From a virus, in the IMG/VR virus record IMGVR_UViG_3300021387_000386: DNA of 32,526 nucleotides; one strand, written 5' to 3'. The position numbers were made by a program, and so were the translations under genes. Below the pieces are notes generated by a model. That model was not told the origin of the DNA. It saw nothing but the letters and a program-made list of their open reading frames with translations, and searched no databases. Positions 108 to 24,211 of this stretch are shown piece by piece. Positions within the stretch are counted from its first letter, which is position 1. The number at the start of each line of letters is the position of its first letter.

Positions 108-1307
108 GTGGCCGGTAAAATTACAAACAAACAGTGTGCCGCACTTATCGGAATTTCTACCGTGTCCGTTTCAAGAATAAAGAAACGCTATCTGCTTAAA
201 GGTGACAAGGCTTTTATCCACGGGCACACGGGCAAGCCGTCACATAACCGCAAGTTTAGCGCAAAAGACAAAAAATATATAGTGGGTTTATATAAAAAAT
301 ATTTTCCTTACGCTCCGTATGAAATATTTTTAGAAACCCTGAAAAGTGACTTCAAAATAAACGTTTCCTATACTTCTGTTTACACAATGTTAGACGGTGC
401 CGGGATGATGTCGCCGAAAGCTCACAAGCCTGTAAAAGAAAAGAAAAAGCATTTACCGCGCCCGGAACGTCCACACGAAGGCGAACTTGTGCAGCTGGAC
501 GGGTGCAAGCATGATTGGTTTATGAACGGGCATTATACCTGTATACATGGATGTATCGACGACGCAACACACAAAGCAACGTCGCTTTATATGATGGAAA
601 ACGAATGCTTAATGGGCTATCAACAGAACATCCGGCAAACCTACGAATTAACCGGCGGTTTTCCAGAAGCGGCGTACACCGACAGAAGCGAAATATTTTT
701 TGTTACAAAAGAAAGCCTGAATAAAATAACGATAGAAGAACAGCTGCAAGGATATGAAAAACGACAGACGCAATGGCAGAAAATGTGCAAGGAATTGAAC
801 GTTAAAACAATTGCGGCCCTGTCTCCGCAAGCGAAAGGCAGAATAGAAAGGTTATGGGAAACGCTGCAAGGCCGGCTTCCTTATCTGTTCAGGTATTACG
901 GCATAGATACGATAGACAAAGCAAACGACTTTTTGCGGGAATATCTGCCCCGATTTAATGCGCTGTTTTCTGTTGAAGCTCGCGAAAGTGTCAAACGATG
1001 GCACCGAAAACAAGTTGATGATGTTGAACTGCTCTTTTCTGTTAAGTCGGAACATACAGCAAAAGCAAACGGAACCTTTGTTTATCATGGCGAAAAGTTC
1101 CGCGTAAATCTGCCATTCAAAAAGTTTACGCTTTGCGTGTCTCCTACAATCGGCGTAAAGGCTTTTTATAATGGCAGATATTACAATGTAGAACTTGCCG
1201 AACCTCTGCAAGATACAATTTCGGATTCTATGCCGATAGTTGAAAAAGAGTTGATCCGGCGGTATTTCTACCGCGACGGGCATTCTAATCTAGCAGAAGT
1301 AAGATAA
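36..1307 (+). CDS. DDE (rve-type) transposase/integrase, ISNCY/IS481-like
   Basis: 423-aa ORF with an N-terminal HTH-like segment (ITNKQCAALIGISTVSVSRIKKRY). Integrase-core signatures follow: QLDGCKHDWF..CIDDATHK (D1), AAYTDRSEIF (D2) and SPQAKGRIERLWETLQGRL (E). TTG at 36, first ATG at 60, no good SD for either. Confidence 0.75.
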   Translation: MSADSYCGMNEAMRQKKALYIPQFVAGKITNKQCAALIGISTVSVSRIKKRYLLKGDKAFIHGHTGKPSHNRKFSAKDKKYIVGLYKKYFPYAPYEIFLETLKSDFKINVSYTSVYTMLDGAGMMSPKAHKPVKEKKKHLPRPERPHEGELVQLDGCKHDWFMNGHYTCIHGCIDDATHKATSLYMMENECLMGYQQNIRQTYELTGGFPEAAYTDRSEIFFVTKESLNKITIEEQLQGYEKRQTQWQKMCKELNVKTIAALSPQAKGRIERLWETLQGRLPYLFRYYGIDTIDKANDFLREYLPRFNALFSVEARESVKRWHRKQVDDVELLFSVKSEHTAKANGTFVYHGEKFRVNLPFKKFTLCVSPTIGVKAFYNGRYYNVELAEPLQDTISDSMPIVEKELIRRYFYRDGHSNLAEVR

Positions 1308-1697
1308 TTACAAAGCTTCGTATTCTGCGCGAAGCTCTGCAATTGCGCTTTCGATTTCCTGCAATTTGTTCAGGTCCTCTTCTGTGGCAATGTTGAGCGC
1401 AACGGCACGGCTTGCCCGCAAGCCTTTGTTTTCGATTTCTGCAATTTCGCGTCTTATCTGCTCTTTGCGCTCTGCCGCGTGCTCTGCATCTTTCTGTTCC
1501 TGGCTCTTTCCCAGAACGATAGAACCGTTTACAAGCCGTGCTGTGCTTTCATATTCTGTGTACCATTCATCAAGCGTGCAGCTTGTTTTCGGCTTTGTTG
1601 TGTAGCCGTCTTTTTTGGCTTCTTCCGGGTCGGTGTTGAAATAAACGCTGTTTCCGTCTGTTGATTTCCAGAAATAAATCATTGCTTCTTCATTCAT
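1308..1697 (-). CDS. Hypothetical protein (last gene after the DGR RT)
   Basis: 129-aa ORF starting 6 nt after the RT stop. The C-terminal half looks coiled-coil (EQIRREIAEIENK...LQEIESAIAELRAEYEAL). No family recognised. Confidence 0.55.
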   Translation of the reverse strand: MNEEAMIYFWKSTDGNSVYFNTDPEEAKKDGYTTKPKTSCTLDEWYTEYESTARLVNGSIVLGKSQEQKDAEHAAERKEQIRREIAEIENKGLRASRAVALNIATEEDLNKLQEIESAIAELRAEYEAL

Positions 1698-1703
1698 AAA
1701 TTT

Positions 1704-2822
1704 TTACCCCTCTATAAATAGTTTGTTGTATAATTTGTCAGTATTTTTAAGTAGTGTTTTACTGTCAAAATACTGCATAAACCCACGCCATGAGCTGTAA
1801 AACTCTGCAATCTGTTTTCGGTCAAGTTCGCCTTCATCAAGCTTCTTTCTGAACTTCTTTAATTTTCGCCGTTCACGTTTGACGCTTTCACGTCCGCCGG
1901 ATTTTATTATTTTCCCGGTCCTTCCGAACTTATAACGGCAATGCAGAAAATCAACGCCGTGTTTAATAGGCGTGATTCTTGTTTTCTTTGGATTCAGGCG
2001 GATTTTGTATTTTTCACAAAGCTTTGAAATTTCTTTTAAGGCGTTTTGCAGCTCTTCTTTTGAATTACACAAAATATAAGAATCGTCCATATAGCGCCCA
2101 TAAAAGCGCATTCTTAATTTTTCTTTTATGAAGTGGTCTATTTTATTAGGAAAGAAAACTGCTAAAATCTGCGAAACTTGACTTCCTAAGCCCAGCCCCA
2201 CTGGTCCGAACTCCTGAACGTAATATTTTGTCAGTGCTAAAAGCGTTTTATCTTTTATCTGTTCGGAAAGCATTTGAAATAGTGATTCGTGGTCGATGTT
2301 GTCGAAATATTTTGAAAAGTCGATTGTAAGAACATAACCAGAAGCGCCGTATTTTCTGTAATATTCTGCAAGATGGCGTTGAATGCGTTTGCGGGCAAAC
2401 TGTGTGCCCTTGCCCTGTAAACATGCGCCGTTATCGTAAATAAGCGGGCGTTTGAGAATTGGAACTAAACATTTGTCGCAAAGTGCTTTTTGCATTACTC
2501 GTTCGCAAATATGCGGTGATTTTATATGCCGTGTTTTTCCTCTTTCGTTTATATCAAAACAAACAAAACCGCGTGTTACGGCTATTTTATTTTCTACGCT
2601 GCGCACGGTGTCGAAAATGTTTTTCAGTAAATACATTTCGTAATATTGCACTGAATGTTTCCAGGCAACGCCCTTTCTGGCACTTCTGAAAGCTTCTAAA
2701 TATATGTCGGGATTTTTTAAGATGTCGTAATTATCAAAACAAGCGTTTGCAGCTTGCCTGCGCTGGTTGCGTTTTTCGGTTCGTCTCTGTCTTCTTGCGT
2801 CTTTTCGGTCTTGTGAAGTCAT
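1704..2822 (-). CDS. DGR reverse transcriptase
   Basis: 372 aa with RT motifs TIDFSKYFDNIDH (A), GLGLGSQVSQILAVFF (the [ILV]GxxxSQ signature of DGR RTs) and YGRYMDDSYIL (YxDD). It sits 3' of a TR that matches two VRs with adenine-only mismatches. Confidence 0.92.
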   Translation of the reverse strand: MTSQDRKDARRQRRTEKRNQRRQAANACFDNYDILKNPDIYLEAFRSARKGVAWKHSVQYYEMYLLKNIFDTVRSVENKIAVTRGFVCFDINERGKTRHIKSPHICERVMQKALCDKCLVPILKRPLIYDNGACLQGKGTQFARKRIQRHLAEYYRKYGASGYVLTIDFSKYFDNIDHESLFQMLSEQIKDKTLLALTKYYVQEFGPVGLGLGSQVSQILAVFFPNKIDHFIKEKLRMRFYGRYMDDSYILCNSKEELQNALKEISKLCEKYKIRLNPKKTRITPIKHGVDFLHCRYKFGRTGKIIKSGGRESVKRERRKLKKFRKKLDEGELDRKQIAEFYSSWRGFMQYFDSKTLLKNTDKLYNKLFIEG

Positions 2823-3064
2823 AATTTATAAATGGCCGCGTATAACGTTACAGTGTTTTTCTACACTATATGTCTGCCTTAGTCTACGTTACTTTGTGCC
2901 GGAAGTATGAAACATGCGATTACAGACGGCGCATGCCATGCAAGAAGCGTCCACTTCCTCACATCGCGGCCCGATTCGTGCTCCTGATTATTCAGGAAAC
3001 ACCGGATCACAAACCTCCTTTCCCTGGCTCGTCGTCCGGCATAATGTCAGACTGTTTGCCAGCT
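2823..3064 (-). other. Spacer between TR and RT; probably part of the TR-containing DGR RNA. 3007-3064 is still inside the Avd-like reading frame that runs through the TR
   Basis: About 240 nt between the TR end (3065) and the RT start (2822). No convincing independent coding ORF lies in the sense direction. In characterised DGRs this position is the spacer of the DGR RNA. No structure claimed. Confidence 0.4.
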
Positions 3065-3633
3065 AAATCGAAACGAACCCCGTTGTTGCCATTGGAAGCC
3101 GAATTGTAGTTGGCATTCCCGTTGTTGTTGCAGTTGCAGAAATTCGCAGATATAGGCTCGGCCCGTTGTAAACTTTTTAATATTTTTGCGTTGGATTTCT
3201 TCCAGCGTCTTAAAACCTTTATAAGATGGTCGATTTCGTCGGCATAGTGCAAAAGACAACGCAAAGTTTCCGGGAACACGTCGGCGCAATATTCAAGCTC
3301 ATTTTGCAGCGCTTCCGCGGTTCCTATTGCATAGTCCTGCAATAACCTTCTTTTATCAACTTCCAGCACACAAGCCGGATAAATCGAATTAGCGATTGAA
3401 ATATACTGCATAAGCTTTTGTAAAAGCCCCAGTATGTCTTTGCGGATAAAATCAACCATATAGGCGGGGTATTGTTCTTTCTGGTTTACAACTGTATTTT
3501 CTTCGGTTGTAAAAGTTTCATTTTTTGAATTGAACTTATTTAATAAATCACACGAAATTTCCCGCCGCAATTCACGTGCAATTTTATAAAAAAGAAGCGA
3601 ACTTTCGCTTCTCTGGTCGGCTCTAACGCTCAT
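3007..3633 (-). CDS. Putative Avd-like DGR accessory protein (ORF runs on through the TR)
   Basis: Sits between target gene and TR, the canonical avd position. ATG at 3633 has AGGAA 9 nt upstream; the track ORF starts at TTG 3684. The sequence looks helix-rich and basic (ADEIDHLIKVLRRWKKSNAKILKSLQR). The C-terminal ~50 aa are simply the in-frame translation of the TR. Confidence 0.5.
   Translation of the reverse strand: MSVRADQRSESSLLFYKIARELRREISCDLLNKFNSKNETFTTEENTVVNQKEQYPAYMVDFIRKDILGLLQKLMQYISIANSIYPACVLEVDKRRLLQDYAIGTAEALQNELEYCADVFPETLRCLLHYADEIDHLIKVLRRWKKSNAKILKSLQRAEPISANFCNCNNNGNANYNSASNGNNGVRFDLAGKQSDIMPDDEPGKGGL
3065..3150 (-). repeat. DGR template repeat (TR)
   Basis: 86-nt block homologous to 3737-3822 and 23601-23686. 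The sense strand reads SANFCNCNNNGNANYNSASNGNNGVRFD. It has 24 adenines, 22 of them in 11 AAY (Asn) codons. Every mismatch to either VR is at one of these adenines. Confidence 0.93.
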
Positions 3634-3694
3634 TTTTTGAATTCCTATTTTTGATTTTATTTTGTTTTGTTTCCTAGTCTTCAATCTTCACAAG

Positions 3695-3711
3695 GCACCC
3701 GCAAGGGGTGC
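3695..3711 (-). promoter_or_regulatory. GC-rich hairpin 3' of VR1 (candidate DGR target-recognition element)
   Basis: GCACCC-gcaag-GGGTGC, a 6-bp stem with a 5-nt loop, 25 nt beyond the VR1 end. An outer inverted repeat cctagtct (3673-3680) / agactagg (3729-3736) brackets it. Confidence 0.55.
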
Positions 3712-3726
3712 GCAGATGTTCAGATT

Positions 3727-4587
3727 TCAGACTAGGAAAGCGAAACGAACCCCGCGGTCGCCATTGGAAGCCGAAGCGTAGCTGGCACTCCCGCCGCTGC
3801 GGCAGTCGCAGAAATTCGCAGAATCGCCCGTATATGGTGACGCTTCCCACCACCACCAGCGCGAACCGTTCCAGTTTGCAATTCGCTTTTGCGGAAATTC
3901 AGAGAACAAAGGCCACTGAACAGAAGTGCCGGTTGAATAACCTTTGTTGTTACTCCATGCCTGATGGCCGAAAACTTCAATTTCTGTCGGAAGAAAAACT
4001 GTTTCGGCAAGCCACACCCAGTCGGTCTTGTTATCAAGTAAGCGGTGAACGGTTTTTGGCGTAATTCCGATAGCGTTAACAAGCCCTGTTTTTACCTGGT
4101 TGTTTAAGTAAGCGCAAAGCTCGCTTGCAGCATATCCGCCGGCGTTTGTATTGGTGCTGTTCATTGCTTTTTGAAAAACGCAGTTTTTCGAGATCATCAA
4201 AATATGATGTGAAGAAACCGGCGTGTCACCGACATTCAAGTAAGTGTCAAAGCCTGCAATCTCAAAGCGTAAACGCTGGTTACTGTTGGAAATTGCGCTT
4301 CCGTCAATTGTCATTGATGATACGTCGATATAGTCGCCAAGTCGCAAGCCGTTGAAATTGCCTGCGTCTGCACGTGTGCGAAGTGCTGCAAAAGCGGCGG
4401 CGGCGTTTGCAACTCCTAAAACTGTAACAAGATTGCGCCCTACATCCGGGCGGTTTGGCGAAAGATAGCCTTCCAGCCCTTCTGGTGATGTCTTGTACTG
4501 GTCGGCAATAAGAATAGAATCATCCTTTTGCGGCGTTCTTGCCGTTAAGGTAGACACCGGAACAATTCCGGTTATGTCATTACTCAT
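3727..4587 (-). CDS. DGR target protein 1 (variable C-terminal ligand-binding domain; probable receptor-binding or tail accessory protein)
   Basis: The C-terminal 30 aa are VR1, preceded by the RWWWWEASP motif shared with the second target. Start chosen at ATG 4587 (AGGAG 10 nt upstream, preceded by the conserved late motif) rather than the SD-less ATG 4638. Located just after the tail-tip genes. Confidence 0.85.
   Translation of the reverse strand: MSNDITGIVPVSTLTARTPQKDDSILIADQYKTSPEGLEGYLSPNRPDVGRNLVTVLGVANAAAAFAALRTRADAGNFNGLRLGDYIDVSSMTIDGSAISNSNQRLRFEIAGFDTYLNVGDTPVSSHHILMISKNCVFQKAMNSTNTNAGGYAASELCAYLNNQVKTGLVNAIGITPKTVHRLLDNKTDWVWLAETVFLPTEIEVFGHQAWSNNKGYSTGTSVQWPLFSEFPQKRIANWNGSRWWWWEASPYTGDSANFCDCRSGGSASYASASNGDRGVRFAFLV
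3737..3822 (-). repeat. DGR variable repeat VR1
   Basis: 86-nt alignment to the TR with 14 mismatches, all at TR positions that are T on the + strand (A in sense). It encodes the C-terminus SANFCDCRSGGSASYASASNGDRGVRFAFLV of the target protein. Confidence 0.93.
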
Positions 4588-4601
4588 AGGTTTTGTGCTC
4601 C

Positions 4602-4626
4602 TATAAGTAATAGTCAGTTTTGTTTT
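4602..4626 (-). promoter_or_regulatory. Conserved late-gene upstream motif, copy A
   Basis: Sense strand AAAACAAAACTGACTATTACTTATAGGAG, directly before the SD and ATG of target gene 1. Near-identical copies lie at 17461, 19164 and 23512. Confidence 0.6.
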
Positions 4627-4651
4627 AGAATTTTGCATTTTTTTGAAAATA

Positions 4652-4660
4652 TGTTATAAT
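4652..4660 (+). promoter_or_regulatory. Extended -10 promoter element (TGTTATAAT) for the exonuclease gene
   Basis: TGtTATAAT at 4652-4660, with the ATG (4667) only 6 nt after the -10 hexamer and no SD. This fits a leaderless mRNA. No good -35. Confidence 0.35.
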
Positions 4661-4666
4661 TTTTGC

Positions 4667-5278
4667 ATGATTTACGCTTTACTTGCAATTATTTGTTTTA
4701 TTATCGTTGGTATCATCAATAGAAAAATTAAGAAGGCGAAAAAAGAAGAAGAAGGGGTTTCCGCCGACTTAGACGAAATTCTTATTTTTGATACCGAAAC
4801 AACCGGCATATTTCCAGATTCAGAAGAAATACTTGAACTTGCAGCAATCAACGGTCTAGGCGAAGTTTTGTTTCACGAACGCTTCAAGCCTGAAAAGAAA
4901 AAGTCATGGCCGAAAGCGCAAGCAATCCACGGAATCAAGCCCGCCGATGTTAAAGACTGTAAGCCGATAAGTGACTATTTACCACAACTTCAAGAAATAT
5001 TCAGCAAGCCGAAAATTATATGCGGTTATAACGTCAGCTTTGATTTAAAGTTTATTCATGCCGCCGGAATAAAAACAAACGCACCCGGCATTATTGATGT
5101 TATGAAACGCTTTGCGGATAGTCGCGGAATCTATGACGAAAAGCACGGTCATAACAAGTGGTTCAAACTTGAAGAAGCTGCAAAATATTACAACTACCAG
5201 TTTGAACCACACGGCGCACTTGAAGACTGCAAAGCGACTTTGTTTGTATTAAAGAAGCTGCAAGGCATTGAAGATTAA
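4667..5278 (+). CDS. Membrane-anchored DEDDh 3'-5' exonuclease (DnaQ/epsilon-like)
   Basis: Exo motifs ILIFDTETTG (ExoI), GYNVSFDLKF (ExoII) and HGALEDCKA (ExoIII, H-x4-D). The N-terminus IYALLAIICFIIVGII followed by NRKIKKAKKEEE looks like a signal-anchor. The track ORF starts at TTG 4643; ATG 4667 is preferred. Confidence 0.8.
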   Translation: MIYALLAIICFIIVGIINRKIKKAKKEEEGVSADLDEILIFDTETTGIFPDSEEILELAAINGLGEVLFHERFKPEKKKSWPKAQAIHGIKPADVKDCKPISDYLPQLQEIFSKPKIICGYNVSFDLKFIHAAGIKTNAPGIIDVMKRFADSRGIYDEKHGHNKWFKLEEAAKYYNYQFEPHGALEDCKATLFVLKKLQGIED

Positions 5279-8200
5279 ACATACAAATATGCATTTGAAA
5301 AATTTCCCCCTGTCACGCTGAGTATTTCTGTTGCTATTCCACCACTAGAATTCTTTGTTTGCATTTGTAGTTTAACATCTCCGTTTGAATATACCCCTAG
5401 CGCATTTGGCATTTTAGCTGCTGAAAACCAGTCTCTATGGCCACAACCTCTAAACAAAACATAGTTTATATCACCATTTGCCTTCCAGAAAACTTCCACA
5501 CTATTTGCGATAAATGTATATGTTATCAAAGGCGCAGAATTGCCATCTACAATGGTTACGTATCCACTAGCAAGATATAGATTTTGTAATCCTTCACGTT
5601 TGGTAAATTGTGCGAAATGAGCTAGAATCCTTTCTACAAACGATGTTATACTTCCTCCGCCGATAAAAGTTGCAAGCCGTGCACCTGTCCGAATGGTAAC
5701 ATCCTTTAACACAATGTTTTTATATTCTCCGCCCTGTGCGTGAACGTTGTTAAAATTAGAATTTCCGTCATAATCAACGGCCCAGCCAGAAGTCCCGTCT
5801 TGATCTATGGCGTGTGTATTTTCGTTATAATGACCATTCCATCCTGCCGATTTAAACAAGCCGCCTTGTTGCATTGTTATGTTTTGTGTAAACAGCTTAT
5901 TGATAAACGCAACCTTTGTCGCAAGTTCTTCACAAAATACAGTTACAGCGGAAAGCTTACGCATTGTCTGTTCAAGCTTTGAATTGTTGGAAACAATTTC
6001 ATCATCAAGAACCGACATAACGTTATTAAAACTGTCGCTTATTTCGCCGTCGTTGATTGATTCGGCCCACTGATAACCGTTCCAGCTGTAAACACGGCCT
6101 TTTAAGAAAGTGTAAGTAACACCGCCATAAGTCACGCTTGTTGTAGGTCCGCCCCATGTGAAATAGTCGCCTTTGTAGCGTGTACCGCCTGCGCTTAAAT
6201 AGTCGTTTATCTCTGTTAAAAGCCCCTTGTTTGTTCCGGCCCTTACTGTTGAGAAGTTGAAGTAAACTGTAAAATCTTTGTTTTCGCCTGCGTAGTTTAA
6301 GTAACCTATAGGCTTGTTTGAATAACCGATAGCATAATTATTAAAACCGATTGCGGTTCCTGTTGTGGCACGGTAGCGGATAACTACCGGGATGTTTCCG
6401 CCTTCGTCGATTTTTACACCTTTGAGCGATTCAAAATAGATTGTTTTTCCTTTGATTGTGGCGGCAATCTGTGAACCGTCGTTTCCGATTGAAACAATTG
6501 TAAATGGAAGTTCTTCTTCTCCATAAGTCAGATGGATTGTTGCAGCGACTTTTTCGCCCCATGCCTTGCCGGTGTTATCACAAGTAAAACAGAAGCTTTC
6601 AACGTCAAAGCGTACATTGTAAACGGAATCGCCTTTTTCACCCTGCGGGCCTTGTGGTCCGGTTGCGCCTGTGTCTCCCTTGTCGCCTTTTTCGCCTTGC
6701 TCTCCCTGTTCGCCCTGTGGTCCTTGTGGCCCCGGAATGCGTACTTCATCGGCAATATCTGCCATTTTCTGCATTATTGCTTCTGGAATAACCGCGCCGT
6801 CTTCTTTTGGTGTTGTAAGGTTTGTTTGATATTCCGGGATGTCTCCGAACTGAAAGATTGCTGAATTATAATCTTTAAGAAGTAATTCCCAGCCGTCGGA
6901 ATTCTGCTTTCGGTTATAAATCATCATTTCGTTTGTAACGCGGCTAAACTCTCCGCTTTCGTTGAGATAACCGAAAGAATAAATATTTCCATATTCCGGT
7001 ATTACATTTATTGCAAGCGGAATAGAAAGTTTGACATTTCGTGTTATGCGCTTTGTAGGGTCTGCCGGTTCTACTTCTATGTATAAATGTTCTTTTGCTG
7101 TGTCTGTCTGTGCCTGAACAATCATGCCATAGCGGGCGTTTGTGTCGGTAAAGTCGCACAAGTCAGAAGTGACAATCTGCTTTAAAAAACCGTTTTCGAC
7201 TGTTATGCTGTGAATAATTCCGTTTGAAAGTCCGATTTTAAGCTGCTTCATTTGAAGCATGATTTTTGAATAAAGCGGGTAATAGTCGCCGTCGCGTCCT
7301 ACCTGAACGGTAATTTCACGCGGTTGCAGCTGTTGTTTTGCAAGAATTCTGTGTGTGTATTTGTAGGCGTGTTCAAAGGTTGTTATATACTTTGGCGCAT
7401 TTTCAACAATAATTTTGTGCTCACCATAAACTGCGCTTGAATCAACCTTGCCGTTTACTGTCTGGTAGAAAGTATCAACGGCCCAGCTTTCACGGTTTGT
7501 GAAAGTTGTTTTTACGGCATACGGCTTGCGTTCAAAAGTTTTTGTAACTGTTACAGATTTAATACACTGCTCATTCAAAAGCGCAACCGGCGTGCTTTGT
7601 GCCTTTTCTATTGAAAAAGTCCATTTGCCCGTTGCGTCGTCTCTGTACATGGTTGTATTGCATTCAGAAAGAATGCTGTTGAGAATGTCTGCTTTCTTTG
7701 AATCGTCTGTTAAAATGCCGTCACAATAAAAGCCGTTCTGTTCACAATAGGTATATACCGCGCCCAGCGCTTCAAGGTCTATTTCATCATCATTATATCT
7801 TGAATGCGGATGTACATCCGTCGTCATTACTTCAAGAACCCATGAAGCGGGGTTTCTTGTCGGGTATCTGTTAACAGTCCATGCGTCATTGTTCCAGATT
7901 CTAGCTTTTCCGTAAGCGTTAATATTTATCTGGTCCAGATTGTCTTTTGTTGATTCGTTGGAAATAATACGCAAGGCAAGGCGTGTTGTTCTTCCTCTCC
8001 ACGGTTGCTCAAGCGGGGCACATGTAACAATGTTGTTATCGGTAGACTTTGCCGCGTCGTACTGCCAGCAATTGAGATAACATAAATAGCAAGTTTCCTG
8101 CGAATTGCTTTCTTCAAGTGCGGTAATACGTGTCAATCTGATCTGAATATCTTTGCCGACACACTGCGCAGCTGTGAGGGTAACAGTTTTACTAAAACGA

Positions 8201-9177: not shown

Positions 9178-9560
9178 TGGATAACCTCGTAAACATTCGC
9201 AAGTTTTAAGTAAGTTCTACTTGAAGCAAAAGAAGAAATTCTAACGCCCTGATTTTCGGTTGCATGAATGAAAGTGTTTTTATCAAGTGCAACTGCAACG
9301 TGTAGCCGCTTATCCTGCAAGCCGTAAAATTCAAGAATTACGCCTTCGCTGATTTCGTCCAGCCGTAATTTTTTTACGTTAAGTGTCGGGGCGGTTTTTT
9401 CAACCTTTGCACGGTCGAACTTTTCTAAAGCTACGTCTTTAAGAGTTTTTCCCAGTCGCTTTTCTACTTCAATTGCAAGGCCGTAACAGTCCAGCCCGGT
9501 TTTTATGTCGCGCCCGAACTCTACGAACGGCACGCCGATTAAATCCGCAACATCAATCAT
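9165..9560 (-). CDS. Tail tip assembly protein, NlpC/P60 (C40) fold, lambda gpK-like
   Basis: 131 aa with GLDCYGL (catalytic Cys context) and LHVAVAL..FIHAT (His). It sits between the L-like and J-like genes. Confidence 0.7.
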   Translation of the reverse strand: MIDVADLIGVPFVEFGRDIKTGLDCYGLAIEVEKRLGKTLKDVALEKFDRAKVEKTAPTLNVKKLRLDEISEGVILEFYGLQDKRLHVAVALDKNTFIHATENQGVRISSFASSRTYLKLANVYEVIQWEH

Positions 9561-10015
9561 GTGTTCCCCTTGTTCGTTTCCGCGTCGAACTTATAAGGCG
9601 GAAAAGTCATTTCTAAGCGGTCGTCGGTTCCTAATTCAAAGTTTAATTCCATATTCTCTGAATAAGAAACGGTTCCGTAAAAATGAATATACTGTTTAAG
9701 GCGCTGAACCTCGCCACCTTCTGCAATAAGGCCCACAACGTCAAGGCGGTAATTGTCGTCTGCATTTTCTACAAACTCAATCAGGCCGTTATCTGCTCCG
9801 CTTATGCGAAGGTTTGCACCTTTGCCGTTTGAATCCGGCGGCGCATATTCAAAGCTTGCGTGATGATAAATATTGCCTTCAAACTCTATGCTTTCGGTGT
9901 TGTTTACAAAGTAGAGTGTTGAACATCCAGGGCAAGAAAACTTTAAAAGAAAGGGCAGTGCATAAGCTCCGCCGTTGAAGTATCTGTTAAAAATCTGATA
10001 TTCGTTTAACTGCAT
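9557..10015 (-). CDS. Minor tail protein, lambda gpL-position (DUF1833-like)
   Basis: 152 aa, in M-L-K-J synteny, translationally coupled to its neighbours through 1- and 4-nt overlaps. Confidence 0.55.
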   Translation of the reverse strand: MQLNEYQIFNRYFNGGAYALPFLLKFSCPGCSTLYFVNNTESIEFEGNIYHHASFEYAPPDSNGKGANLRISGADNGLIEFVENADDNYRLDVVGLIAEGGEVQRLKQYIHFYGTVSYSENMELNFELGTDDRLEMTFPPYKFDAETNKGNT

Positions 10016-16661: not shown

Positions 16662-17447
16662 TTATTTCTCCTGATTTTGTGTATAGAAAACAAATCGCGC
16701 ACGGCGGTTTTGTTCTTCCCGTTCTTTTGCTTCTGCTTCTGCTTTGGCTCTCTCTTCTGCTTCTTTCTGTTCAGTGGCATTGTCAGTGTCGTTTGACTGC
16801 TGGTCTGTTTCTGCTGAACGAATCATTGCTTCAAGATTGTCTACTACAGCGCGAAGCTTTGTTTTATCTTCTTCTGAAAGCTCTTCGCGTTTCAGAATTG
16901 CGTTAACTTCGTCAAAGTCCGTTCCGCACTTCTTAAAGAACGAACGAACGTTTGTGTTACCTTCTGGATAGGCCGGAAAAGCGACGCACACGGAAATTTC
17001 AAGAAGTTTTACTTCCACTAATTCGCGCAAGTCGTGGTCTAAGTCAATTTCGGTCCACTGGGTCTTGATAGGAATAAAACCGAAAGACAAAGTGCGACAA
17101 TCGCCGCGTTTTATAATTTCGTATGCGTCGTTTCCGTCTGTTGTATTCGGAAGGTCCACTTCAAAATGCAAGCCGTCTTCTTCGCTTCTCATGCGAAGGG
17201 TTCCAGCTGTGGAACTTCCCAGAATCTTTGTCACGTCATGGCCCAGCAAACATTTAACTTCTGCTTTGTCTGCAAGGGTTTTATTAAAGGCGGTCGGCAA
17301 GATTCTTTCAGTTGTTCCGTACATATCAACGGAATCTGAATTGTAAGGAATCACACCTTTAATGGTGCGCTTGTCGTCTTCTACGCCGTAATCACATGCA
17401 CGAATAAAGAATTCGCCTTTTGGTTTGTCGTTTTTAGTCGGTTTCAT
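16662..17447 (-). CDS. Prohead serine protease (HK97 family) with acidic/coiled C-terminal extension
   Basis: 261 aa. GVIPYNSDSVDMYGTTERILPTAFNK...LLGHD...LSFGF resembles Caudovirus prohead proteases. Located between the portal region and the capsid gene. Confidence 0.8.
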   Translation of the reverse strand: MKPTKNDKPKGEFFIRACDYGVEDDKRTIKGVIPYNSDSVDMYGTTERILPTAFNKTLADKAEVKCLLGHDVTKILGSSTAGTLRMRSEEDGLHFEVDLPNTTDGNDAYEIIKRGDCRTLSFGFIPIKTQWTEIDLDHDLRELVEVKLLEISVCVAFPAYPEGNTNVRSFFKKCGTDFDEVNAILKREELSEEDKTKLRAVVDNLEAMIRSAETDQQSNDTDNATEQKEAEERAKAEAEAKEREEQNRRARFVFYTQNQEK

Positions 17448-17460
17448 TTCTTTTTGCCCT

Positions 17461-17485
17461 CATAAGTAATAGTCATTTTTGTTTT
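17461..17485 (-). promoter_or_regulatory. Conserved late-gene upstream motif, copy B
   Basis: Sense AAAACAAAAATGACTATTACTTATGAGGG, then 9 nt, then the ATG of the protease. The TGA inside the motif is the stop codon of ORF 17473..17901. Confidence 0.6.
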
Positions 17486-17901
17486 CCATAATTCAGGTTT
17501 TTTGGTGAATTTTCCCAAATTATTTTCTTTCCCAGCCCTTTTAAATAACCTACAATCATTGCAAGGGCGGGGCGCTCTCTTATATATTCTTCCTGGGAAT
17601 CCTGCGGGCACCCAGTAATAAGAACCTCTTCCACATCTTTTTCAAGAAGCGTTTCAAGTGCCATTCCGCACGCTGAACAATTAAGCGGCAAGCCTTCTTT
17701 GTCACACATTCCATAAACTACGGAATGCAGATTTCTTCGCACCAGCTTTTCAGGATGTTTTGTCTGCAAGCCGTGTAATTCATAGTAGCGGTCACAATCG
17801 GGGTCAGCGTTTCGGCCCAGCGTCCAGACGGTATAACCTTTCTTTTTAAGTTCCTTTCCGGTCGGGTGCGGAATCGCAAGCCCCACAATTGCTATTTTCA
17901 C
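17473..17901 (-). CDS. Hypothetical alpha/beta protein inserted between portal and protease
   Basis: 142 aa with a Rossmann-like start MKIAIVGLAIP. Cys-containing segments present (LNCSACG, ITGCPQD). There is a 4-nt overlap with the portal stop. No family recognised. Confidence 0.6.
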   Translation of the reverse strand: MKIAIVGLAIPHPTGKELKKKGYTVWTLGRNADPDCDRYYELHGLQTKHPEKLVRRNLHSVVYGMCDKEGLPLNCSACGMALETLLEKDVEEVLITGCPQDSQEEYIRERPALAMIVGYLKGLGKKIIWENSPKNLNYGKQK

Positions 17902-19148
17902 TGCTTGTCGTCTCCTGCCGGCGAATGCTGGTCGCTGTCGTCTCCGCCTTTATCGTTTAAGCCCTGTGCTGTAAGCTTCTGTTTTGCCATATATGCGTTA
18001 ATGGTTTCGTCATTAAGCGGCATAAGGTTTGCCGGCATAAAGAAGTTGTCTCCGGCTTCGATTGGTGGCAAGTTTTCTTTTGCGCGAACTTCGTTTGGTG
18101 ACAAAATGCCGTTGCCGATTTGTTTTGCGTAAGCGTCCACACGTTTTGAAAGGGCAACTTTAAGAAGTCCGTGGAAGTTAAACTTGAAGTAACAATTATC
18201 ATCAATTAAAAGATTGATGGATTCTTGCAGCTGGATTGCAAGCGGTTTAATTGCAAACTCTGTAAGAAGAGTAAACAGATTTTCAAGATCAAGATTTGCA
18301 CTCTTGCCTGAAAGAAGCTCGCCAGGAAAGGCGAAAATATTTGCAATTTCGTGTTCCTGAAATTCTCTGTTTTCGATAAGCGTTGCGGCTCTGTTGTCTG
18401 CATTCTGCCCGATTTCGGAATATTCCATTCCCTTTTTCTTGAAAAGTGGCTTTCCGGCATTCTCTGGTCCGGCATAAGTTGCGGTATAATCGTTGCGCAG
18501 TTCTTCAACCTGTTCTTTTGTTGCGTCTGGCAAGGCGTTTGAAATATCAATAACAAGACGTTTTCCGCTTATGCCTTTATCGAATGCACTGTTTGTGTAG
18601 TTGTCGAGTTTGTGCGCTGTGTCAAAGGCAGCGTTTGCAGCTTTGAAGATGGAAGAACCGCCGTTGATTGTCGAATAGTCAAAGCGGGAAGGAATATAAA
18701 GCACATCATCATCGGTGTAACGGTGGCCGTTGTGCAAATAGATTCTTTCCCTTGTGAACTGGTCGCGTGTTACTGTTGTTTCCTGCGGGCTTAAACGGAA
18801 TAAAGAAACAAGCTGGCCTTCTGTGCCTTTTCCTTTCTTCCACATAATACCGCCGTTGTAATAATCAACAATCGACTGATAAAAGAAGTTAAAATGTAGG
18901 TCTTCAAGATTCGGTCTCGCTAAGACTGCATATAGCGGATGATTTGAAATTTCTTTGTTTGTGCGTTTGTTATAAATCCCATAAGACAGCCCCGCAAACT
19001 CACTGGCTATGCGGTCAATTGTCGCAAAAGATGTGCTGTCTCTTCCTGTAAGCTTTGCGGAAGCGTGGCGATAGTCTGAAATATCGCGGGGGCGTTCCTG
19101 TGCCTTCGGATTCGGATTTGTTCTTTTTAGAAAACTGAAAAATCCCAT
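17898..19148 (-). CDS. Portal protein (HK97 family)
   Basis: 416 aa downstream of TerL. Size and sequence character fit HK97-type portals. Confidence 0.85.
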   Translation of the reverse strand: MGFFSFLKRTNPNPKAQERPRDISDYRHASAKLTGRDSTSFATIDRIASEFAGLSYGIYNKRTNKEISNHPLYAVLARPNLEDLHFNFFYQSIVDYYNGGIMWKKGKGTEGQLVSLFRLSPQETTVTRDQFTRERIYLHNGHRYTDDDVLYIPSRFDYSTINGGSSIFKAANAAFDTAHKLDNYTNSAFDKGISGKRLVIDISNALPDATKEQVEELRNDYTATYAGPENAGKPLFKKKGMEYSEIGQNADNRAATLIENREFQEHEIANIFAFPGELLSGKSANLDLENLFTLLTEFAIKPLAIQLQESINLLIDDNCYFKFNFHGLLKVALSKRVDAYAKQIGNGILSPNEVRAKENLPPIEAGDNFFMPANLMPLNDETINAYMAKQKLTAQGLNDKGGDDSDQHSPAGDDKQ

Positions 19149-19163
19149 GACGTTTATTGCTCC

Positions 19164-19188
19164 TATAAGTAATAGTCATTTTTGTTTT
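19164..19188 (-). promoter_or_regulatory. Conserved late-gene upstream motif, copy C
   Basis: Sense AAAACAAAAATGACTATTACTTATAGGAG, then 11 nt, then the ATG of the portal. It overlaps the TerL stop codon. Confidence 0.6.
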
Positions 19189-20869
19189 AAAAAAGTGACT
19201 TTACATCATTAAAACTTAGTGTCGGCGGTGGTGTTATTACTTCCGGGTTATGTGCCAAGCCGTGACACATTATTGAAGTTATAACGCCATCTATACGGCG
19301 GGTGCTGGTTTTGGATGGTTTCATAGGTTTGTAATTTCCGTTCGGGTCCGGCCTGATTTCTGCATTGTTTATCATCCACGCCATGACGGGGTTATTATCA
19401 ACTATTAAGCCGTCTTTTATCGCCTTTTCGTAACTCTTTGTCATTGGCGAAAGCTTCTTTAATGACTGTTCAACCTCAATCAATAAAATGTCCGGGCGGT
19501 TTGCTTCGACTTTTTCTATTACGTCGTGACTTTGCCATTTATCGTAACCCAGCGCAAGAATTCTGTATATTTCAGCGTCGTTCAAAAAGTCGTTTACAAT
19601 AAAATCATAATTAACAGTATTTCCGGGCGTTGCCTTAATTAAGCCCTGGTCTATCCACTGGAAAAAGTTAATATTTTCTTTCTTATACTTCTGAAACGCC
19701 ATTGCTTCCGGGATGTAGAAGCGGTGTTTATAATATTCTTTGCCTTCATGCTGAAAAACAAGACTGTAAGCGGTCAAGTCGTCTATGTTTGAAAGGTCCG
19801 TTGCAGCACAACAAGCCATGTTTTCAAAATCATCAAAATCAACTTTGATTTCTTTGTTTTTCTGGAATACTTCAAGCGGAATCCAGGATTTCTTCCCACC
19901 GCCGCCCCAGATATTGAAAGTTTTTGCTTTAAGTTCAGGAATCTTTTCCGGCGAAACTTGCGCGTCGTTTATGTCCGATTCAATAACAGAAGGGTCTATA
20001 ATATCATATAAAGACGGGTTCGCTTTCTGCCATACATTCGGATTGGTGTATTCGTCGCCCTCGTCGATTGCATAGATAATACAAAAATAGTCTTCCTGGG
20101 TTTGCAGCTCGTTCAGGATTCGGCGGGCTTTCAATGTTTCGTCATAACATGGTACGTTTACATCTACATCGGCGGTCGTAATAATAACGCCCTGCGCGTC
20201 TTTTTTGGATCTTGTACCGTACTGCATAGAAGTAAAAAGCTTGTCGGTTGCGTAAGCGTGGTATTCATCCAGGCAATAGAAGCGGGGCTTGAATCCATCT
20301 GTATCTTTGGCACCGTCGCAGAAAAACGCAAGGCGTGAATTATCCATAGTCACGGCAAGCGAAAGCGGGGTGCAGTTATCTTTTAAAGCCGGGTCTTCGT
20401 TGATGATTGCAACAATTTCTTTATAGGTCTTTTCGGCCAGATCATCACGACTTGAAACAAGATAGGATTCAGAAGCGGGATATTTTATAAAATTAAAAAG
20501 CGTAAGCGGTAAAAGTAAGCCGGTTGTTTTTCCGTTTTTTCGTGCTACCTCTATATAGCCCGTTCGGTAGCGTTTGCGGTCCGGCTCGTTTTTGTGTCTC
20601 CATCCTTCCAGCTGGCACATGCAGAAAACCTGCCACGGCAGAAGCTTCAAACATTCGCCGTTCAGGTCCGCTGGTTTCAAACTTTCTGCAAATTCACATA
20701 ATATGTCAGCGTCTTTTTGAGAATAGAAAAAATCAAAGCTGGCTTCTTTCTCTCTTTTCAGGTCGTTTTTATATCGTTTAATTGCTTTGATGGTGTAAAC
20801 GCCGGCGGCGATTTTGCCGGAAAGAACATCATCGCAATATTTATTCATTATTTCGTGATATTTGCTCAT
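19187..20869 (-). CDS. terL: Terminase large subunit
   Basis: 560 aa. LLPWQ...GYIEVARKNGKTT is a Walker A-like ATPase segment, and a nuclease-type C-terminal half follows. Follows TerS with a 4-nt overlap. Confidence 0.9.
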   Translation of the reverse strand: MSKYHEIMNKYCDDVLSGKIAAGVYTIKAIKRYKNDLKREKEASFDFFYSQKDADILCEFAESLKPADLNGECLKLLPWQVFCMCQLEGWRHKNEPDRKRYRTGYIEVARKNGKTTGLLLPLTLFNFIKYPASESYLVSSRDDLAEKTYKEIVAIINEDPALKDNCTPLSLAVTMDNSRLAFFCDGAKDTDGFKPRFYCLDEYHAYATDKLFTSMQYGTRSKKDAQGVIITTADVDVNVPCYDETLKARRILNELQTQEDYFCIIYAIDEGDEYTNPNVWQKANPSLYDIIDPSVIESDINDAQVSPEKIPELKAKTFNIWGGGGKKSWIPLEVFQKNKEIKVDFDDFENMACCAATDLSNIDDLTAYSLVFQHEGKEYYKHRFYIPEAMAFQKYKKENINFFQWIDQGLIKATPGNTVNYDFIVNDFLNDAEIYRILALGYDKWQSHDVIEKVEANRPDILLIEVEQSLKKLSPMTKSYEKAIKDGLIVDNNPVMAWMINNAEIRPDPNGNYKPMKPSKTSTRRIDGVITSIMCHGLAHNPEVITPPPTLSFNDVKSLF

Positions 20870-23531: not shown

Positions 23532-23558
23532 AGAAAGGCGAAACAATTTTTCTGTAAA

Positions 23559-23579
23559 CTGCCGGCACAAGGCCGACAG
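23559..23579 (-). promoter_or_regulatory. Hairpin 3' of VR2 (candidate DGR target-recognition element)
   Basis: CTGCCGGC-acaag-GCCGACAG, 7 bp plus one C.A mismatch with a 5-nt loop, 21 nt beyond the VR2 end. The loop RCAAG and the spacing parallel the VR1 hairpin. Confidence 0.5.
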
Positions 23580-23581
23580 AT

Positions 23582-24211
23582 TTACAGATACTGGATCAGG
23601 AAAGCGAAACGAACCCCGTAGAAGCCAATGGAAGCCGAATTGTAGTTGGCATGCCCGGCGTCGCTGCAGTTGCAGAAATACGCAGATTCAAACTTAGTCG
23701 GTGTTGAAAGCCACCACCAGCGCGAATAATCTTCGTCTTTATCAAAAGCGATTCTGTGATTGCCTTTTTTGAAGTATTTCAATTGCTCGTCTGCACATTC
23801 TGCAAAATCTTCAAATTCAGAAACCCCGAAAACCTCACCAACAGAAAGAAGACGAACTTCTTTTACAGCTGGTGTTTCAAACGGCGTTTCCATTTCCTTA
23901 AAAATGCCGGCAAGAACTTCTTTAACTTCATTACTCAAATACTGTGCAAGCTCTGTTTTTGCGTATTCTTTGCAATTGTTTGTATCTACTGGGCCGTCGA
24001 AAATAACCCGATCCATAACAAACAGCATTTCTTTTTCTGTCTTCTGAATCAGTGTTGCGCTTTCCTTGTGGCACTCAACCGGCGGATATAAACCTTCTTT
24101 TCCCGGTAAGCAAAAAGAAAGCCTGATTTTGTCACCGACATTAAGTTTAAAGCCGTTTTCTCTCAATTTCTGGAAGTCCTTTTTTGTTGAATAAGTTGTT
24201 TTGATTTTCAT
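23582..24211 (-). CDS. DGR target protein 2 (remote target, variable C-terminus)
   Basis: 209 aa. The C-terminus RWWWLSTPTKFESAYFCNCSDAGHANYNSASIGFYGVRFAFLIQYL parallels target 1. No signal peptide or TM segment seen. ATGA overlap with the upstream DUF4406-like gene. Confidence 0.85.
   Translation of the reverse strand: MKIKTTYSTKKDFQKLRENGFKLNVGDKIRLSFCLPGKEGLYPPVECHKESATLIQKTEKEMLFVMDRVIFDGPVDTNNCKEYAKTELAQYLSNEVKEVLAGIFKEMETPFETPAVKEVRLLSVGEVFGVSEFEDFAECADEQLKYFKKGNHRIAFDKDEDYSRWWWLSTPTKFESAYFCNCSDAGHANYNSASIGFYGVRFAFLIQYL
23601..23686 (-). repeat. DGR variable repeat VR2 (remote)
   Basis: 86-nt alignment to the TR with 11 mismatches, all at TR sense-strand adenines. Encodes SAYFCNCSDAGHANYNSASIGFYGVRFAF. 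Confidence 0.92.

Follow-up and report, generated by a model that had tools for sequence, protein, structure and literature searches.

Positions 1704-4587 of the virus record IMGVR_UViG_3300021387_000386 (IMG/VR) hold a reverse transcriptase (RT) gene and two copies of a short repeat. The question raised by this locus is whether these parts form a complete diversity-generating retroelement (DGR), which genes would be diversified by it and whether it is in use. The whole stretch of DNA that was analysed, 32,526 nucleotides (nt) in length, is called the window here. We conclude with high confidence that the window carries a complete DGR of architecture B that diversifies two DUF6273 (C-type-lectin-like) proteins of a temperate tailed phage of ~32.4 kb. 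Architecture B, in which the target gene with its variable repeat (VR) is followed by an accessory gene, the template repeat (TR) and the RT gene, is the commonest DGR architecture. The cassette is located wholly on the minus strand, and its order in the sense direction is target 1 with VR1, a hairpin, an accessory open reading frame (ORF), the TR, a 251-nt non-coding stretch and the RT gene. The initial annotation of this DNA, made from the sequence alone, had described a complete element at 1704-4587. The cassette found there is complete, but a second target gene at 23582-24211 and its repeat, VR2, had been missed.

Template repeat and variable repeats

Three copies of the repeat are present in the window:

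3065-3151, minus strand: TR, 86-87 nt with 24-25 adenines, conserved in the relatives L001-L006
3737-3823, minus strand: VR1, encoding the last 31 residues of target 1
23601-23687, minus strand: VR2, at the 3' end of target gene 2, the third repeat copy given by the repeat finder

The TR (3065-3150) can be aligned to VR1 (3737-3822) without gaps, and all 14 mismatches are found at adenines of the TR sense strand (T on the plus strand). This alignment had been made by hand in the initial annotation and was reproduced when it was recomputed. If 14 mismatches were placed at random over the 86 positions, all of them would be found at the 24 adenines with a probability of 4.3e-10. Between the TR and VR2, 11 mismatches are present, again all at TR adenines (P = 1.6e-7), which brings the combined count to 25/25; the computed alignments contain no non-adenine mismatch in either VR. 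The TR/VR1 family was also recovered independently by the repeat finder. As annotated, 22 of the 24 adenines in the 86 nt are packed into 11 AAY codons, a count that held on recomputation; the other adenine-bearing codons are one TAC and one GAT that is located outside the mutagenised part. The translation of the TR is SANFCNCNNNGNANYNSASNGNNGVRFD and that of VR1 is SANFCDCRSGGSASYASASNGDRGVRFA. Both VRs are in frame and encode the C-termini of the ORFs 3727-4587 and 23582-24211, and at all non-adenine positions both are equal to the TR variant of their own genome (TTCC...GGC).

One of the mismatches requires a different explanation. At the 3'-most mismatch the TR has GAT and the VR has GCT; the C is present in both VR1 and VR2, and the resulting alanine is found in 67/68 natural variants of target 1. 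Therefore, this is a fixed difference between TR and VR, of the type known as IMH* (IMH, initiation of mutagenic homing), and not a product of mutagenesis. The annotated placement of all 14 mismatches at adenines stands.

The TR had also been called unusually short, which could not be maintained. In 60-odd related DGR loci, the TR/VR repeats are 78-147 nt long, several of them 80-95 nt, and the published mutagenic region of DGR repeats is 30-100 bp, with the flanks extra. With its 86-87 nt, the TR here is among the shorter ones but ordinary. With 11 AAY codons and one TAC codon, ~3.5e13 different peptides are possible, and the diversified peptides are expected to sit on the ligand-binding face of the targets.

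Reverse transcriptase

1704-2822, minus strand: DGR RT gene, 372 amino acids (aa), Pfam RVT_1 (3.8e-23), with LGSQVSQ (residues 212-218) and YMDD

The RT ORF and its YMDD motif were recovered as annotated, with a length of 372 aa. The DGR motif [ILV]GxxxSQ is present as well, although it had been read as GLGLGSQ, three residues out of register; the correct motif, LGSQVSQ at residues 212-218, is aligned to IGSLTSQ of the RT of phage BPP-1 (bRT). Other RTs carry QGxxxSP where DGR RTs have [I/L/V]GxxxSQ. In addition, R98 and I100 are aligned to R74 and I76 of bRT, the fingertip arginine and isoleucine. The best sequence match in the PDB is 8ub7_A (3.8e-26, 95 bits), with group II intron RTs reaching only 1e-11, and an identical alignment is obtained with the translation of brt in the genome of BPP-1. 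To this product the RT is 29% identical over 271 residues (BLASTP, 2e-32), and it matches PHROG 1423 with 1.3e-85. Judged by these sequence comparisons, the RT groups with the BPP-1 DGR RT. The nearest RT relatives in the genome collection are found in Treponema metagenome-assembled genomes (MAGs), with 50-56% identity. These and one Spirochaetaceae DUF6273 protein are only distant hints of the host.

A different origin of the same parts can be considered, in which the three 87-nt copies are ordinary paralogous repeats that are maintained by recombination or gene conversion, and the RT comes from an unrelated retroelement such as a group II intron, a retron or an abortive-infection or defence-associated RT (DRT) system. 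The top-scoring NCBIfam model for the RT is indeed a group II intron RT/maturase (5.9e-30), and low-level retron and Drt matches are also obtained. However, the scores for the group II intron, retron, Drt2-5 and AbiA models are far under the curated cut-offs throughout (104.6 vs 300, 55 vs 235 and 55 vs 200), and the match to bRT is much stronger than any group II match. The Rfam scan of the whole window did not give any intron or retron RNA, but only the motif RT-2. Ordinary divergence would also not be expected to place 25/25 mismatches at TR adenines or to give the codon-specific variation that is observed in 68 natural variants. This origin is extremely unlikely and is refuted for practical purposes, in favour of a DGR with its own RT.

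Natural variation in related phages

Close relatives of the phage in IMG/VR (L001-L007) have RTs that are 79-99% identical to the one described here, and VR1 and VR2 were compared in 6 + 5 related contigs. Between VR1 and the TR of the same genome, the mismatches are at adenines only in L001 (14/14), in both L003 and L004 (19/19), in L005 (13/13) and in L006 (16/16); the same is observed for VR2 in L044 (19/19) and L047 (16/16). The flanks of the VRs are near-identical across the genomes of these relatives, and the adenine sites differ. At non-adenine sites, two TR lineages can be distinguished: TTCC...GGC, found here and partly in L005, and TGAC...AGC, found in the others. VR1 matches the TR of its own genome at these lineage-specific positions, indicating that it has been copied from the cognate TR.

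The variation is equally specific at the level of codons. A set of 68 variants of target 1 consists of 67 full-length (286-aa) cluster representatives from the protein database and the protein of the window. Its column entropy is 2.0-3.5 bits at each of the 11 AAY codons, at the TAC codon and at position 274, where the TRs of most relatives have GAC. At the F, C, G and A codons in between it drops to ~0, and over the rest of target 1 it is mostly <~1.6 bits. Overall, the variability is concentrated on the AAY and TAC codons and on two codons that have adenines in the TRs of relatives. In public metagenomes, hypervariability is confined to adenine-templated codons. The initial annotation had named three outcomes that would refute a DGR, concerning the RT clade, the computed alignment and the population data, and none of them was observed. 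The DGR lineage is evidently active at the population level.

What weighs against activity of this particular copy is that a single assembly cannot show it, and that the VR states could have been inherited. The cassette could then be a fossil, in which a lineage that once diversified VR1 and VR2 is represented by a copy that no longer homes. Such an outcome has parallels close by, where DGR cores have been lost repeatedly (L007 and L100, and the Avd::RT fusions P0032, P0039, P0043 and P0045) and where L002 carries an eroded TR. In the window, however, all parts are intact, including a full-length RT with YMDD, a full-length RT-2 and a TR with 11 AAY codons. Both VRs match their own TR variant (TTCC...GGC) at every non-adenine position, and nearly all intact relatives carry differing VRs. 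A fossil cassette is therefore quite unlikely, and the locus is best regarded as an intact DGR.

Loss and apparent erosion of the DGR in relatives

The losses themselves can be described at the sequence level and concern at least two contigs. L007 is without the equivalent of window positions 3703-2283, and the prophage L100 is without 3654-2038. The accessory gene, the TR and RT-2 are removed by these deletions, and the RT is truncated at its N-terminus (by residues 1-180 in L007 and ~1-260 in L100). P0032, P0039, P0043 and P0045 are differing in-frame fusions of Avd to the RT C-terminus, and some of their junctions are located at short shared peptides (MQY, NSK); P0028 is listed with the core-deleted alleles. 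The DGR core has been deleted repeatedly and independently in close relatives. The VRs in the core-deleted genomes are still diversified, i.e. frozen.

The TR of L002 (IMGVR_UViG_3300031853_000387; 6650-6736) has seven substitutions relative to the family TR, all of them at adenines and all in the 5' half. 'Non-adenine' mismatches are counted five times in VR1 of L002 (5988-6074) and twice in VR2 (L045, 3525-3611), because of these substitutions in the TR. This pattern looks like erosion of the TR by self-homing or by stepwise conversion from VR to TR, and it could also be an artefact of metagenomic assembly. In two genomes (L001/L048 and L007/L046), VR1 and VR2 carry the signatures of different TR lineages (TGAC vs TTCC), and target 2 of L001 is only 67% identical to that of the window. 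The mixed signatures indicate recombination between phage lineages, with the imported VR not re-homed afterwards. Together, the core deletions that freeze VRs and the adenine-eroded TR are natural 'experiments' on when phages switch diversification off.

Spacer RNA between TR and RT

2814-3064, minus strand: RT-2 RNA (RF03077), TR-RT spacer, 251 nt, cmscan 73.4 bits vs gathering score 40, full model 1-222

RT-2 is the sole match in the window that reaches the Rfam gathering threshold. On the strand of the RT, it extends from the first base past the TR up to the RT start codon and thereby fills the gap between the two exactly. In 15/32 related loci that were scanned, RT-2 is found in the same place, and its start is within ~20 nt of the 3' end of the TR. 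For 11 instances of RT-2, this window included, enough upstream sequence is available, and in 10 of them a TR with an adenine-biased VR partner is located just upstream. The paper that described the RT motifs tied RT-10 alone to a DGR, as the TR-RT spacer of BPP-1, and any role of the other motifs was speculation (PMC5737381); the literature searched contained no later assignment of RT-2. Because RT-2 begins directly at the 3' end of the TR, this orphan Rfam motif is assigned here to DGRs as the TR-adjacent spacer.

In BPP-1, the spacer cis-primes the synthesis of complementary DNA (cDNA) (10.1101/2023.10.23.563531). By analogy, RT-2 would most likely be the priming and scaffold RNA of this DGR clade, the presumed counterpart of the BPP-1 'Sp' region. 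One point counts against it, in that a priming duplex between TR and spacer could not be established. By our reading, the predicted duplex would occupy part of the first RT-2 stem, on its 3' arm, and a homologous TR:spacer pairing was not found in L009, L010, L025 or L049, so that its position is not conserved. The candidate concerned is an 11-bp duplex predicted by RNAduplex, in which GGUUCGUUUCG of the TR pairs with spacer nt 27-39, followed by A40. RNAduplex recovers the right region in the BPP-1 control, but the duplex is not claimed here. A pairing of the conserved AAAGGAG of RT-2 with the 3' end of the TR was also considered and was discarded, as inspection showed no consistent covariation. 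RT-2 provides a ready covariance model for studying the priming of cDNA by spacer RNA outside BPP-1.

An ORF of 43 aa with a GTG start (2879-3010, minus strand) is located inside RT-2, and its start is 6 nt after a strong Shine-Dalgarno-like GGAGG. This likeness to a ribosome-binding site may be a coincidence, because AAAGGAG is a conserved consensus element of RT-2.

Target proteins

3727-4587, minus strand: target gene 1, 286 aa, ATG at 4587, Pfam DUF6273 (PF19789), 1.5e-09, 38.4 bits vs cut-off 23.5
23582-24211, minus strand: target gene 2, 209 aa, stand-alone DUF6273, Pfam 2e-09, 38.0 bits vs cut-off 23.5, with relatives in L044-L048

In both targets, the DUF6273 match extends to the C-terminus. 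Homologues of target 1 are 286 aa long, and this length speaks for the start at 4587. Target 1 was modelled with AlphaFold (predicted local distance difference test (pLDDT) 82.9, predicted template modelling score (pTM) 0.80), and the model is confident from residue 50 on. Its only significant Foldseek neighbour in the PDB is 9qa6, the immunoglobulin A peptidase (IgAse) of Thomasclavelia ramosa (2.5e-7, aligned residues not visible). The N-terminal domain of IgAse is annotated as DUF6273 (PMC12402451) and has been described as C-type-lectin-like (PMC12237041). Of the two folds that had been suggested for target 1, C-type-lectin-like or like the formylglycine-generating enzyme (FGE), the former agrees with this published description of DUF6273. 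Foldseek did not give a significant match to FGE, Mtd or TvpA, and the matches to classical C-type lectins are very weak. A profile search of target 1 against PDB sequences did not give a match. In BFVD, 27 matches with E <=0.001 were obtained, mostly DUF6273 proteins of gut phages, some of which are named receptor-binding or tail-collar proteins.

Published DGR targets already include DUF6273 proteins whose VR is C-terminal, also in phage DGRs with two targets (PMC10743442, PMC11792537), and non-adjacent second targets within the same prophage are common (PMC5758913). Target 1 follows the gene of a 1300-aa tail fibre with collagen repeats, with a plus-strand DEDDh exonuclease gene between them. 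The VR2 target is located 19.9 kb from VR1; it has nucleoside deoxyribosyltransferase-like and DnaC-like genes on one side, that of the replication genes, and HNH and terminase genes on the other.

A 54-nt element occurs three times in the window (4592-4645, 17451-17504 and 19154-19207, in the minus-strand sense), with the core AAAACAAAA[A/C]TGACTATTACTTAT[A/G][G/A]G[A/G]GCA. Each copy is located just upstream of a minus-strand start, namely those of target 1, a 261-aa ORF ending at 17447 and a 416-aa ORF ending at 19148, and in two of the copies a mini-ORF (MTITY...) starts from an ATG within the element. The element may be a late-gene leader or promoter. If it is a late-gene signal, target 1 would be placed among the late structural genes.

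Signals downstream of the variable repeats

3695-3711, minus strand: hairpin after VR1, 6-bp GC-rich stem, loop CTTGC, 25 nt past the end of TR/VR1 homology
23551-23588, minus strand: hairpin after VR2, inner 8-bp GC-rich stem, loop CTTGT, starting 21 nt past the end of homology

The predicted DNA fold of 3677-3736 (minus strand) has an energy of -9.7 kcal/mol (z = -3.3), and that of the hairpin after VR2 is -14 kcal/mol (z = -6.95). The hairpin downstream of VR1 is presumed, by comparison with BPP-1, to be a target-recognition hairpin or cruciform. The hairpin of BPP-1 is GC-rich and is located 4-34 bp downstream of the VR, with a stem of 7-10 bp and a 4-nt GRNA loop; the structure of its stem matters but not the stem sequence, and the loop is sequence-specific (PMC3240598). 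Downstream of VR2 in L044-L048, the CTTG loop recurs on differing stems, and the stems also differ between the two targets. Variable stems with a constant CTTG would fit the stem and loop rule of BPP-1. The dimensions fit less well, since the loops here are 5-nt CTTGY instead of the 4-nt GRNA consensus, with stems of 6 and 8 bp.

The ends of the repeats also differ between TR and VR. VR1 and VR2 have a common 3' block, GGGGTTCGTTTCG, followed by a VR-specific CTTTCCT (3734-3754 in VR1), where the TR instead has ...G-ATTTAGCT. In the comparison of the IMH region, GGGGTTCGTTTCGCTTTCCT is present in VR1 and VR2 and GGGGTTCGTTTCGATTTAGCT in the TR. From its sequence, the block GGGGTTCGTTTCG with CTTTCCT may act as an IMH-like end.

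Accessory gene in the Avd position

3007-3633, minus strand: accessory ORF, 208 aa from the ATG at 3633, helical core 3154-3633, between target 1 and TR

This ORF had been called Avd-like in the initial annotation. The position of the gene and a weak fold match agree with that name, but sequence-profile tests against the BPP-1 Avd family do not. The AlphaFold model consists of four long helices (bundle pLDDT 84-95) with a beta-hairpin insert at residues 37-53 and a disordered tail encoded by the TR. The top Foldseek neighbours in the PDB are 2rld, 2gsc and 4dwl_D, the last of which is BPP-1 Avd (probability 0.94). The entries 2rld and 2gsc are annotated as a member of the S23 ribosomal protein family and as a conserved hypothetical protein, and we take them to represent the family to which Avd belongs. 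Several results count against a relationship with Avd. The E-values of these neighbours are weak (0.07-0.4), and the accessory protein has no sequence match in Pfam, NCBIfam or the PDB. The Pfam family precomputed for BPP-1 Avd homologues is PF22296, and a Pfam Avd match was not found in 12 close homologues, 8 accessory ORFs of related DGRs or 88 family representatives. When three successively broader alignments were compared with BPP-1 Avd and its homologues using hhalign, the probability was 0.1-0.3%. Avd of BPP-1 is a small and basic four-helix-bundle protein that forms a pentameric barrel. The accessory protein is not basic as a whole, as its core has an isoelectric point of 7.6 and basic character is confined to the C-terminal helix. 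The accessory protein may be called Avd-like on the basis of its position and modelled fold, with homology unproven.

A second feature of the ORF is that it does not stop before the TR. It reads through the TR in the frame of the VR and a further 57 nt into RT-2, with its stop at 3007. Close homologues of 207-208 aa likewise read through the TR, as do homologues down to 52% identity, with only in-frame indels at the junction; those with 39-47% identity stop before the TR. Among the related DGR loci, read-through is restricted to this lineage and one Treponema MAG (L049), and in 25 others a stop is found 0-87 nt ahead of the TR. When 1.8 billion representatives were searched with a profile, an accessory family of 732 members (50%-identity clusters, E <=0.001) was obtained. 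Among the 150 listed, a tail of the type 'NF[AC]NVNNNGNAN...GVRP' is present in 15/146 new representatives (~10%; e.g. P0326, P0336, P0369 and P0419), and read-through in another frame was seen in only two family members, P0421 and P0422. The residues that are conserved past the TR (...KGG) fall on the AAAGGAG element that is conserved in RT-2, and their conservation is explained by this constraint on the RNA.

It has been considered that the protein belongs to a large family apart from classical Avd, with an ORF that, both in this lineage and in ~10% of the listed representatives, is joined to the TR in the same reading frame. This is unlikely as a whole. If it were true, the DGR template RNA would itself be translated, and the protein would carry an invariant, asparagine-rich copy of the VR peptide; either the tail itself or ribosomes moving along the TR could then gate the use of the template by the RT. 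The proposal that RT-2 is the cis-priming spacer of a whole DGR clade would be more secure than this one. A sizeable family of proteins in the Avd position escapes the Pfam Avd models.

Proposed course of diversification

The biochemistry of BPP-1 suggests how the parts may act together, including cis-priming, the role of the accessory protein, the function of the hairpins and the binding of receptors by the targets. The RT and the accessory protein, which is small and helical, would bind a transcript with the TR and the adjoining RT-2 RNA. The spacer would prime the synthesis of cDNA on the TR as template, and nucleotides would be inserted at random opposite adenines. This cDNA would then replace VR1 and VR2, which form the 3' ends of target genes 1 and 2, respectively. 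Homing could be directed by GGGGTTCGTTTCG, the VR-specific CTTTCCT and the GC-rich hairpin with a CTTGY loop 21-25 nt downstream.

Neighbouring genes and phage ends

36-1307, plus strand: ISNCY-type DDE transposase gene, 298 bits vs cut-off 250
4643-5278, plus strand: DEDDh (RNase T-type) exonuclease gene, with the tail fibre gene and target 1 on either side

These two are the only non-nested ORFs of >=100 aa on the plus strand, and they bracket the cassette, as had been noted from the sequence. Its description as an accessory island is open to doubt, since in most of the close relatives compared the cassette is collinear together with the plus-strand genes on either side; the window from 5283 to 1 is collinear in L001, L002, L005 and L006. 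When the DNA of 1300-5300 was compared with the phage collection in distant mode, no match was obtained. The repeat finder gave a 107-bp terminal direct repeat in the window, which fits the circular assembly that had been annotated.

In an 805-kb bacterial scaffold (L100), the phage homology stops at window position 1 (= 32420), beside the gene at 36-1307, and is followed by bacterial glycosyltransferase genes. The gene at 36-1307 is probably the integration enzyme of the phage, with the contig ends marking the attachment site. A recent insertion of an insertion sequence was also considered for this gene and was ruled out, as it is present and collinear in all relatives and at the prophage end. 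In the same scaffold (9229-9964), the DEDDh gene is replaced by two ORFs on the same strand, one of which encodes an NlpC/P60 protein, making this a variable spot.

Comparison with known systems

DGRs as such are already well known, and the locus at 1704-4587 is a further clear example that is not conceptually new. It is one more well-resolved phage DGR, with two targets and population evidence of adenine-specific diversification, and can be used as a clean test case. The by-products outweigh the DGR itself, namely the assignment of RT-2, the accessory family outside the Pfam Avd models and the natural loss alleles.

The prototype is the DGR of BPP-1 (mtd-avd-TR-brt; brt 1756-2742, TR 2887-3020, avd 3021-3407, mtd 3438-4583), which has the same gene order and strands with near-equal spacing. 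The RTs are 29% identical and share [I/L]GxxxSQ, YMDD and the fingertip arginine and isoleucine. Both systems have a C-terminal VR in a lectin-like target near the tail genes, an AAY-rich TR and a GC-rich hairpin after the VR. In contrast to BPP-1, the target here is a DUF6273 protein and not Mtd, and a second, non-adjacent target is present. The spacer RNA is RT-2, whereas that of BPP-1 is RT-10, and the accessory protein lacks sequence similarity to Avd, has a beta-hairpin insert and is not basic overall. The avd gene of BPP-1 stops exactly at the boundary of the TR, whereas the accessory ORF here reads through it. The loop is a 5-nt CTTGY instead of a 4-nt GRNA, and the TR is 87 nt instead of 134 nt.

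With regard to the targets, the closest likeness is to the nd4/nd12-like gut phages (PMC10743442) and the Faecalibacterium prophages Lelie, CP11, Roos and Pioen (PMC11792537), which likewise have DUF6273 targets with the VR at the C-terminal end of the domain. In these phages, a C-type-lectin-like fold has been described and two targets per DGR have been reported. The small single-domain tgt2 proteins of gut-phage DGRs (234-294 aa) resemble targets 1 and 2. Unlike in those phages, neither target here is a tentaclin, in which an N-terminal lectin domain is followed by Ig domains, and both VRs here are C-terminal.

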